The notes below the pieces were generated by a model. That model did not search any database and was not told the DNA's origin. It worked only from the letters and a program-made list of their open reading frames with translations. The position numbers were made by a program, and so were the translations under genes. Below are positions 20,299 through 21,608 of a stretch of DNA of 46,563 nt, piece by piece. Position 1 is the first letter of the stretch; the number at the start of each line of letters is the position of its first letter. The stretch lies in NCBI GenBank assembly GCA_964435575.1, contig CAYSZS010000003.1, forward strand, positions 1 to 46,563. Reading direction: 5' to 3'. The stretch is from an uncultured Gammaproteobacteria bacterium. Its GTDB lineage: Bacteria > Patescibacteriota > Microgenomatia > UBA8517.

Positions 20299-20613
20299 TC
20301 ATCTTATAACTTGGGCAAAAGGATCTCCGATTTTTATGTAAAACGTATTACTAGCTTTTACGTATCCCAGAGCCTCGGCTTTCTCGCTAAGAGAAAGAAG
20401 TGATGTGGATTTAATCAACTCGTCCTCCAGTTTTTTGTTTTCCTCGCTAATAACATGAGACCTATTTTCCAAATCTGAAAACTCCGCGCCAAGAGCCCCC
20501 TGTTGAACGCTGAATATGACTTGTATGAATATAAAAAAGGCCAGCAAAAACCATAAAGATTTGGCTCCAGGTCTTAATTTATTTCGGTAGTCTCGTTTTT
20601 TGGTAAATCTCAT
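20299..20613 (-). CDS. FtsL-like bitopic coiled-coil protein
   Basis: 104 aa, one TM, coiled coil, AEALGY motif; between rsmH and ftsI. Confidence 0.7.
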   Translation of the reverse strand: MRFTKKRDYRNKLRPGAKSLWFLLAFFIFIQVIFSVQQGALGAEFSDLENRSHVISEENKKLEDELIKSTSLLSLSEKAEALGYVKASNTFYIKIGDPFAQVIR

Positions 20614-21608
20614 TTTTTTTGTAAAATTCTCATTTTTGCGCTTCTAGCCCTCGGATTTTCCTTAATTTCTTCCGTACCGGGAATAATGGCTTTTTTTGAA
20701 ATGATTAAAGCTCGTCCTGAATCCTCTATCACTTTAAAAAAATGCTTTGTCAGTCTGTCTTCCCCCGAATGAAAACTAATTACGACAAGTCTTCCACCAG
20801 ATACTAGTAGTTCTAGCACTTGGGGTAAGGCTTGTCTTAAATTATCAAGCTCGCTATTGACGGCAATCCTTAGGGCCAAGAAAGGTAAAGTTGCGCCGTG
20901 AAGCTTTGGCTTTATCTTGTAATCGTCACCGATGACCATTAAAAAATCTCCAACAGTTTTTATTTCTTTCTTCTCCCTTACGTCAATTATCTTTTTTGCC
21001 AAAACTTTCGCTCTATCCTGGGTTAAGGTTTCCTTAAAAACCTGGGTAAGCTGACCAATATTAAGCGCTTTCAACAGGTCCGAGGCGGTGACTTTTTGAT
21101 TAACACTATCCAGTCGCATGTCCAAAGGTACCGTTGAATCCTGAAACGAAAACCCCTTAATTTTTTTGGTCAATTGATAACTGGAAATCCCCAGATCAAA
21201 AAGTATCCCGTCAACTTGATCAAAGCCTTTTTCTAGCGCGATTTTCTTTAGATCTTTGAAGTTGCCATGAACGAGAGTATATGACCCCCGAGTCGGACTC
21301 GGAGTAGGGACGGGTACCATACGATACCCGTCAGGGACAGACACCGTATGGTGTCTGTCAGGGCAGGCTTCTATTAATCTCTCTCTAGCTATCTCCAAAG
21401 ATTCGCTGTCCGCTTCAATCCCCAAAACGTTACCACCAGACTTAACAATTTCTATTGCATGACCACCTAAACCAACCGTTGCGTCAATATAGCGTGCTTG
21501 CCTGCCTGCAACTCTTTGCAGAGCACCGCGGGCAGGATTTTTAATGTGCAAGGCACTAAGTACTTCTCGAACCATCACCGTCTTGTGATTATTGTCTTTT
21601 TCGTTCAT
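20610..21608 (-). CDS. rsmH: 16S rRNA m4C1402 methyltransferase RsmH, with two in-frame insertions
   Basis: HKTVM, DATVGLGGHA, DLGISSYQ, PLDMRLD, ALRIAVNSEL, ISFHSGEDR, NPRARSAKMR. Confidence 0.97.
   Translation of the reverse strand: MNEKDNNHKTVMVREVLSALHIKNPARGALQRVAGRQARYIDATVGLGGHAIEIVKSGGNVLGIEADSESLEIARERLIEACPDRHHTVSVPDGYRMVPVPTPSPTRGSYTLVHGNFKDLKKIALEKGFDQVDGILFDLGISSYQLTKKIKGFSFQDSTVPLDMRLDSVNQKVTASDLLKALNIGQLTQVFKETLTQDRAKVLAKKIIDVREKKEIKTVGDFLMVIGDDYKIKPKLHGATLPFLALRIAVNSELDNLRQALPQVLELLVSGGRLVVISFHSGEDRLTKHFFKVIEDSGRALIISKKAIIPGTEEIKENPRARSAKMRILQKK
21288..21362. repeat. array of three adjacent hairpins inside rsmH (15-nt plus two 24-nt units separated by AGG)
   Basis: CCGAGT-CGG-ACTCGG; AGG; GACGGGTA-CCATACGA-TACCCGTC; AGG; GACAGACACC-GTAT-GGTGTCTGTC; AGG. 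Confidence 0.85.
21501..21536. repeat. 36-nt REP-like palindrome inserted in frame in rsmH
   Basis: CCTGCCTGC...GCGGGCAGG termini with inner CTCT-GCAA-AGAG hairpin on the coding strand; encodes PARGALQRVAGR. Confidence 0.85.

Follow-up and report, generated by a model that had tools for sequence, protein, structure and literature searches.

Hairpin array in the rsmH gene

The window, i.e. the whole analysed stretch of 46,563 nucleotides, is contig C3 of the source genome G000 (GCA_964435575.1), which comprises 1.12 Mb in 58 contigs with a G+C content of 38%. The study concerns two 24-nt hairpins, units A and B, which lie in tandem inside the rsmH gene of the window. The gene order around rsmH is mraZ-rsmH-ftsL-PBP, and the named RsmH relatives found in the homologue search belong to Candidatus Woesebacteria. 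In the following, genomes are labelled G, contigs C, DNA loci of relatives L, and RsmH protein homologues P. The features of the locus, all on the reverse strand, are:

20610..21608, reverse strand: rsmH, 16S rRNA (cytosine1402-N4)-methyltransferase, 332 aa, the open reading frame that hosts the putative insertions; PF01795 was present in all 79 homologues
21360..21368, reverse strand: GCCTGCCCT, codons Ala-Cys-Pro, a nucleotide-conserved motif immediately 5' of the insertion point, its final CCT being the putative duplicated target
21360-21362, reverse strand: CCT copy 1, the end of the motif, 5' of unit A
21336..21359, reverse strand: unit A, 24-nt hairpin encoding DRHHTVSV, probably the younger insertion
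21333..21335, reverse strand: CCT copy 2, putative target duplication separating units A and B
21309..21332, reverse strand: unit B, 24-nt hairpin inverted relative to unit A and encoding DGYRMVPV, probably the older insertion
21306..21308, reverse strand: CCT copy 3, putative target duplication 3' of unit B
21285..21305, reverse strand: third, resident hairpin ACTCCGAGT-CCG-ACTCGGGGGT (hairpin proper 21288-21302), located where orthologues have their ACCCC...GGGGT hairpins

The coding strand reads GCC TGC CCT-GACAGACACCATACGGTGTCTGTC-CCT-GACGGGTATCGTATGGTACCCGTC-CCT-ACT-CCGAGT-CCG-ACTCGG. The stem of unit A was formed by 10 Watson-Crick pairs out of 10, that of unit B by 9 Watson-Crick pairs and one G.T pair. 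Their loops, ATAC and GTAT on the coding strand, are reverse complements of each other. The original prediction, made from the letters of the window, had described two equal 24-nt hairpins flanked by three CCT triplets beside a third hairpin, and this description was exact. Translation across the units resulted in PDRHHTVSV PDGYRMVPV, the 9-codon peptides that had been given.

A degenerate pattern of the unit matched 2 sites in the window (4 strand-hits), compared with an expectation of 0.00 determined from 100 shuffles. For the 91-nt array, the folding energy calculated for RNA was -46.8 kcal/mol (z -5.3) and that for DNA -25.4 (z -5.1); 0 of the 200 shuffles were as stable in either calculation. 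Among the 239 windows of the same length within its own rsmH, the array was the most stable. An identical stretch, with full word share, was detected in the Logan contigs of 18 runs. Because this stretch recurs in contigs of public runs, an assembly artefact is excluded. The array was unbroken in two of the four runs examined, and those runs may include the source sample. No variation in unit number and no indels within the strain were detected in the contigs of the four runs, in which rare variants are dropped.

Presence and absence of units among RsmH homologues

The query and 79 homologues represented three states: two units were present in three proteins (the query, P0001 and P0002), one unit in three (P0003, P0005 and P0006), and none in 74, as determined from the protein sequences. 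The zero-unit state is represented by the rsmH of G001, a genome of the same genus (L002/P0004), where a single TGC CCT runs straight into a different hairpin; a contig with this allele co-occurs in run X1. An empty site with a single CCT, as well as alleles with one unit, thus exist as the insertion proposal had implied. P0003 retains the peptide of unit B alone, in the form GGYRMVPVP, and lacks unit A. Because of this one-unit homologue, the only one that bears on the order, unit A was probably inserted later than unit B.

P0002 was identical to the window protein through the end of unit B, and thereafter identical to the G001-type protein P0004. Either natural recombination or a chimeric assembly, the junction being located at the hairpin array, would account for this protein. 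An earlier metagenome scan for rsmH relatives found no relative; a metagenome rsmH scan resulted in 80 mostly distant loci, the best of which, L095, was of the zero-unit G001 type.

Insertion states were observed in other genes as well. G023 carries in its obg gene a unit with AAA..AAA flanks, and at this place the 70%-identical obg of G000 has a gap of exactly 9 aa. The unit in rnhB of G031 (L036) was flanked by AAA/AAG, and the gap relative to G000 amounted to 5 residues, not 9, so that this case supports insertion only partly.

Dispersed family of units

Both units are members of a dispersed family with the general form GNCAGGTACC-N4-GGTACCTGNC. A genome-wide hairpin scan and two family scans revealed about 10 further members in G000 beyond rsmH. 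In total, 14 24-mers of the genome were near the consensus and had at least 8 of 10 arm pairs. A structural scan of G000 gave 25 matches, compared with 1-9 in ten shuffled genomes. The members elsewhere in G000 are:

C1:50131
C1:63027
C13:18228
C16:25724
C20:712 and C20:737, in tandem
C23:18198
C25:10341
further, weaker members

Across 41 related genomes, the pattern CAGRTACC-N4-GGTAYCTG with at most 2 mismatches was found at 66 places in 26 genomes, and the reversed control pattern at 12 places. Copies of the family therefore exist both in the source genome and in relatives, and these agree with the earlier claim that the two units represent one element family. Matches with 7 or fewer stem pairs located in long open reading frames (e.g. 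L042, L049, L050, L059, L061, L068, L078) were dropped as probable chance matches, and the filter of at least 8 pairs was applied ahead of the counts of flanking repeats and covariation.

The arms covaried strongly. Position 2 was paired in 56 of 60 units, with all four pair types represented, and position 6, being either G-C or A-T, was paired in 58. At position 5 a G/A mismatch was detected in 11 of the 60. G.T mismatches outnumbered A.C mismatches (19 vs 8), favouring the strand with loop GNNT. As a mark of the strand of function, this bias is suggestive only.

Most copies of the family lie outside long open reading frames, and several adjoin tRNA genes. Three units begin exactly at the discriminator base + CCA of a tRNA (tRNA-Trp in L052, tRNA-Ser in L079, and tRNA-Ser on C20 of G000). 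Two members are located within the 23S rRNA gene of L047 (G014:C5), at locus positions 1499 and 1732. The Rfam match of this 23S rRNA gene extends over 2895 nt for 1919 model positions, which corresponds to ~1 kb of inserted sequence.

A composite form was observed in G034 and G015. It is ~60 nt long, CCCGCCCCGC-TTC-unit-TTC-GCTTGGCGAGGCCGGGG, near-identical at several loci and always situated within heptamer arrays; the unit occupies the loop of an outer hairpin bearing tandem A.G mismatches. The heptamers of these arrays in G015 and G034 were GAGTTTT, AACTGTT and GAAATTT. In G000, 7 was the commonest tandem period determined with TRF, resulting in 191 arrays of many different sequences at a low score threshold. 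Examples are C1:87355-87387, C11:13822-13859 and C19:4489-4519, and C3:10393-10413 within the window. The abundance of heptamers in G000 recalls that of heterocystous cyanobacteria.

Flanking repeats and the insertion site

Of the 65 units in which 8 or more stem pairs are formed, 15 had identical 3-nt flanks at the exact unit boundaries. At the 35 other offset combinations, identical triplets occurred on average 2.2 times (range 0-6). Some of the 15 flanked units are related copies (L038/L082/L085 and L175/L176), and about ten are independent. The flanking triplets vary by site, including CCT, TCT, TTT, GAA, TTC, AAA and GCT. In the orthologue L006, for example, the rsmH site reads GCCTGCTCT and the unit there is flanked by TCT..TCT. 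The triplet therefore changes with the target site as a target duplication predicts, and the 3-bp CCT duplication proposed for the window is borne out by these site-specific flanks. The 0/1/2-unit states of RsmH and the dispersed copies likewise favour the claim of two separate insertions of one family. Units A and B are very probably insertions of a dispersed hairpin element, accompanied by a 3-bp target duplication at a hotspot.

The same rsmH position was occupied by a CCT..CCT-flanked unit in G033 and G038, which represent another family of the order and share ~45% protein identity, in line with the hotspot at CCT that had been suggested. In L012 and L013 the corresponding DNA is again a hairpin flanked by CCT..CCT, so the prediction's alternative of a conserved peptide with non-palindromic codons was not found. 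A unit-like hairpin in G017, G025, G031 and G032 extends into the codons for the conserved YRLV strand. With few exceptions, the expanded rsmH linkers of the order consist of a hairpin, and the TGCCCT before it is nucleotide-conserved. For 21 orthologues the linker measured 21 nt or more; it was the most stable window of the gene in 12 of them and among the top 3 in 15. Orthologues without the Ala-Cys-Pro codons (L019, L023, L025, L028, L029) had no hairpin. TGCCCT was retained in 17 of the 19 orthologues with Cys-Pro/Ser at the site, the genome codon use being 0.39 for TGC and 0.31 for CCT.

The sequence preceding the insertion point also occurs next to units outside rsmH. The arrangement AGCCTGCCCT-unit-CCT was found at two intergenic places in G138, one of which has a second unit in tandem, and CCTGC-NNN precedes the units at C13 of G000 and in L036. 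The motif GCCTGCCCT itself has 5 sites in G000, of which the four outside rsmH carry no hairpin; consequently, it is not a general marker of units in this genome.

At least three unrelated sequence families of hairpins were found at the rsmH site. In L002, L003, L005, L007 and L008 a different hairpin occupies the resident position and shares the outer CCC(C)/GGG(G) pairs. Judged from these sequences, the third hairpin is the older resident of the site and predates both units. The hairpin ACGTTCA-loop-TGAACGT was present at the hotspot and also at C11:12470 and 12843 of G000. Another dispersed family of hairpins, NNACGTTCA-7 nt-TGAACGTNN with CAATCA variants, has one member in the rsmH hotspot of G001 (L002); its positions in G000 are C11:12470-12494, C11:12843-12867, C33:1589-1613, C5:5386-5412 and C25:8668-8692.

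Effect on the RsmH protein

The AlphaFold2 model of RsmH, based on 55 sequences, had a mean predicted local distance difference test score (pLDDT) of 90.3 and a predicted template modelling score (pTM) of 0.89. Residues 82-108, corresponding to Ala-Cys-Pro, both units and the peptide of the resident hairpin, were modelled as a low-confidence coil (pLDDT 51-74) between the helix 68-81 and the strand 109-114. According to the model, the 18 additional residues would be accommodated in a disordered surface linker and the methyltransferase fold would be kept full-length. The rsmH frame stays open because 24+3 nt equal 9 codons without a stop. The insertions are most likely tolerated because the 9 codons are added within a disordered loop.

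Similarity of the unit arms to the ends of IS3-family elements

Contig C55 of G000 carries an insertion sequence (IS) of the IS3 family with orfA (HTH_Tnp_1) and orfB (rve; NF033516 198 bits, cut-off 160). Its ends are imperfect inverted repeats of ~40 bp with the outermost bases GACAGGTACCCC and GTCAAGTACCCC. The arm consensus of the units, GNCAGGTACC, equals the terminal 10 bp of the tips, GACAGGTACC and GTCAAGTACC. The left and right tips differ at the place of unit arm position 5 (CAGG vs CAAG). Related IS copies begin with TGACAGGTACC... and TGTCAAGTACC..., and the tip (T)GACAGGTACC was present in 7 of the 15 IS loci analysed. IS3-family elements generate 3-bp target duplications, and the related copy L186 was flanked by the duplication TTG. 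The layout of a unit is that of a mini-IS, with outward tips of 10 bp per end and 4 nt between them. The boundary unit A-CCT-unit B resembles, by analogy, an IS3-type junction of two inverted repeats (IR-IR) with a 3-bp spacer. Insertion beside end-like sequences and IR-IR junctions are documented for IS30 and IS911 in PMC9333248, which describes both for copy-out-paste-in IS including IS911.

The region C55:1-1769 is mostly one IS3-family element, with a masked N run at 317-326, and a direct repeat of the IS tip, GACAAGTAC, is located just outside its left end. On the larger contigs, no distant pair of half-sites was found that would point to a full-length IS bearing these ends.

Other transposase-related sequences were detected in parallel. 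A RAYT-like Y1 transposase of 238 aa (RAYT, tyrosine transposase associated with repetitive extragenic palindromes, REP) is encoded at C2:19187-19903 (L181:1285-2001) of G000. Its match to PF01797 was 37 bits (cut-off 23) and to NF047646 50 bits, below the cut-off of 80. A second Y1_Tnp match at C30:4683-5015 is interrupted by two stops and has a perfect 11-bp hairpin alongside (C30:5055-5081); it may be a relic of the IS200/IS605 type. No DDE_Tnp_1 domain was found in G000.

Proposed explanation and its alternatives

We propose that the units represent a very small inverted-repeat element in which 24 bp comprise two 10-bp arms around 4 nt. It would be a MITE (miniature inverted-repeat transposable element) of extremely small size derived from IS ends, its arms being the outermost 10 bp of IS3-family terminal inverted repeats (TIRs). 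Each insertion would bring a 3-bp target duplication, in rsmH the CCT, directly after GCCTGC-CCT. Unit B would have been inserted first, and unit A then onto the CCT beside the end of unit B. The units would be moved in trans by an IS3-type OrfAB transposase. Members of the IS3 family insert beside sequences resembling their own ends; the preference for CCTGC-NNN targets and the tandem arrays with 3-bp spacing would thus be explained by an IS3-type transposase inserting near end-like sequence. Taken as a whole, this origin of the units as micro-MITE insertions from IS3 ends is slightly favoured by us, while the assignment of the mobilisation to an IS3-type transposase is tentative.

Several observations weigh against this explanation. 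Flanking duplications were absent from 50 of the 65 units, and the units at the three tRNA 3' ends, likewise without duplication, look differently integrated. The covariation between the arms suits a hairpin-dependent process at least as well as one acting on duplex TIRs. Only 14 of the 139 genomes of the order, all belonging to family f1, yielded the IS transposase, and five IS-bearing genomes hold 0-1 units each. The unit-rich genomes G031, G033 and G015 had no rve-domain match. This lack of co-occurrence is weak evidence because metagenome bins often leave IS copies unassembled. Binding of the IS911 transposase needs subterminal IR sequence beyond 10 bp, and two ends 4 bp apart cannot synapse as duplex DNA. 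With 10-bp ends separated by 4 bp, the 24-bp unit is consequently an odd transposase substrate. Finally, there is no identical pair among the units of G000 and population polymorphism was not seen in the contigs of the four runs, so that these data give no sign of current activity.

The identity of arms and tips could also be achieved if the units were scars of full-length IS3-type insertions. In such a case, the IS would have been inserted with a 3-bp duplication and its interior later deleted, leaving the tips and a few bases in a manner resembling the nearly precise excision of Tn10, and the units would never have been mobile. Not only the arms and the 3-bp flanks agree with this, but also the presence of units in genomes without a detectable IS, as hit-and-run visits would leave, and the G/A mismatch at precisely the arm position where the two IS tips differ. 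However, the present IS repeats continue after the tip with GGTACC-CCTT, from which a simple slip would not give the ACC-GNNY-GGT centre, and a short CAGGTACCTG palindrome was noticed only once. All units measure 24 bp, and all four pairs occur at arm position 2, where A faces T in the IS. Furthermore, the cells would need to have withstood a 1.2-kb insertion in rsmH, upstream of ftsL and the PBP gene, on at least four separate occasions at the one site. The scar origin is considered improbable. The second alternative dispenses with the IS ends and assumes that a folded DNA or RNA strand was moved by a Y1/HUH transposase or another activity that prefers the loops of other hairpins, as with REP/RAYT systems or the small dispersed repeats (SDRs) of cyanobacteria, the likeness to IS tips being secondary. 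The very strong arm covariation and the RAYT-like gene of G000 are in accordance with it, as is the nesting of units in hairpin loops: the GAA loop of GTCGCC/GGCGAC holds the unit on C23 of G000, and a similar nesting is seen in the composite of L038, L082, L084 and L085. The composite is also embedded in tandem heptamer repeats, as SDRs are said to be. Transposition of the HUH/Y1 type makes no target duplication, in conflict with the 3-nt duplications observed; moreover, the 60-70-nt flanks of the RAYT-like gene contained no GGTACC-type hairpin, no reverse transcriptase domain (RVT_1) was found in G000, and the 10/10 match to the IS3 tips would have to be a coincidence. A single-strand route is regarded as unlikely.

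The remaining alternatives do not involve mobility. The rsmH/dcw transcript could contain a functional structure, for instance an attenuator, a processing site or a stabiliser, that has been selected and has evolved in place by compensatory change and local duplication. The prominence of the linker among the stable windows of the orthologues would be expected from this, and the upstream TGCCCT has been conserved contrary to codon usage. Folded as RNA, the array is closed into a multi-branch structure by pairing of GCCC with GGGU beyond the third hairpin, and the members located exactly at tRNA 3' ends make a role in processing or termination plausible. A structure evolving in place leaves unexplained, however, the near-identical 24-mers at unlinked loci and in obg, the site-specific 3-nt duplications, the different unit numbers among close relatives, the opposite orientation of the two units, and the at least three unrelated hairpin families at one site. 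It is very unlikely as the origin of the units, while a secondary, exapted function of the hairpins is compatible with the evidence. The units are in frame, equal in length and both translated, which would also suit a duplicated 9-residue peptide with incidentally palindromic DNA, or chance. This possibility is refuted by the pattern expectation of 0.00 and the fold z-scores below -5. In addition, the hairpin is retained in both DNAs while the peptides agree at only 4 of 9 residues, disorder is predicted for the peptide region, and most family members lie outside long open reading frames; the probability left to it is negligible.

A broader form of the micro-MITE explanation is doubtful. It holds that the 24-bp IS3-tip DNA is a genuine trans-mobilised unit which homes to end-like CCTGYC + 3 bp and builds tip-3bp-tip arrays. 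As 24+3 nt always make 9 codons, it would repeatedly supply in-frame peptides (rsmH, obg, rnhB), along with insertions in rRNA and 3' trailers of tRNAs, to the reduced genomes of Patescibacteria. In that case the Ala-Cys-Pro codons of rsmH would represent the fossil of an element end, and repeated end-targeted events would have kept them uniform. If this were true, the unit would be the smallest DDE-type mobile element known.

Comparison with known systems

The closest known analogue of the units is the SDRs of Nostocaceae. SDR1-8 of these cyanobacteria, reported in Elhai et al. 2008 (Genome Res 18:1484), are described as hairpins of 21-27 nt, nested, located in heptamer repeats and site-specific. 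The units share with them the tiny size (24 nt), the hairpins with compensatory variants, the dispersed copies and nested insertions, the association with tandem heptamers and the specific short insertion target. This likeness, judged from the reported descriptions, is one of kind only. In contrast to SDRs, the units are of unrelated sequence and occur in an unrelated phylum (Patescibacteria/Woesebacteria). They are few (1-7 per genome), have clear 3-bp duplications and IS3-tip arms, and lie in frame in housekeeping genes. According to PMC5861425, SDR5 inserts in HIP1, and no SDR-like repeat was found outside Nostocaceae among HIP1-rich cyanobacteria.

With IS-derived MITEs the units have in common that they are non-coding, possess terminal inverted repeats matching an IS, make a target duplication of the parent's length, and show presence/absence polymorphism. 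They differ in size, since 24 bp retain only 10 of the ~40 bp of each IS repeat. Described bacterial MITEs are ~50-400 bp long, several-fold larger. Co-occurrence with the IS across genomes was not observed either, the bins being incomplete. REP and REPIN sequences, as generally described, are short GC-rich hairpins, often at the 3' ends of genes and in inverted pairs, and G000 has its RAYT-like gene. In contrast to them, the units have target duplications, and no conserved 5' tetranucleotide of the GTAG type was seen in them. The RAYT-like gene is not flanked by units, the copies number in tens and not hundreds, and some are inside coding genes.

Rickettsia palindromic elements are likewise palindromic selfish DNA inserted in frame in genes and translated as an extra surface peptide. 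They are ~100-150 bp long, and we know of no IS parent for them. The units differ from them in size and phylum and in having IS-matching arms. The targeting of IRs by IS911 and IS30 (PMC9333248) corresponds to the units in the insertion beside own-end-like sequence, the fixed short spacer, and the abutted end junctions as at the boundary of units A and B. There it concerns full-length IS, and nothing comparable is known for 24-bp units.

A literature search for such elements in Patescibacteria/Candidate Phyla Radiation gave nothing pertinent among the matches listed. If the 24-bp units were mobile, the accepted minimum size of IS-derived elements would drop several-fold. They would represent a second, independent case of very small mobile repeats, in a phylum unrelated to the Nostocaceae from which alone the earlier ones were described, and would tie such repeats to a concrete, testable transposase family. 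With the same element found in the linker of rsmH, in a loop of obg and within a 23S rRNA gene, the units may offer a mechanism for the unexplained short lineage-specific insertions in proteins and rRNAs of the Candidate Phyla Radiation. The rsmH site, where TGCCCT is combined with at least three unrelated hairpin families, could serve as a natural model of a hotspot inside an essential cell-division operon.

Additional hairpins and repeats

Five family-like hairpins were found within 300 nt of intergenic DNA at positions 1240-1530 of L043 (G023:C28), 1.1 kb from a cobalamin riboswitch match at locus positions 13-138. The G000 RNase HII gene (rnhB, C28:9750-9813) has, relative to that of a relative, a 21-residue insertion, IPLKTLRLRSGQAKKFGDLEISG. 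The DNA of this insertion resembles the GC-rich repeat …CTTCG.CTCGC…CTCAGG.CAAG…, and the same repeat adjoins intergenic hairpin units at C13:18300-18360 and L043:1290-1400. In G000 C25:13527-13700, the 3' end of the 16S rRNA gene (reverse strand) is followed by CCTTGTTC and then by non-rRNA sequence with a weak family-like hairpin, which suggests an insertion or intron in this 16S gene.

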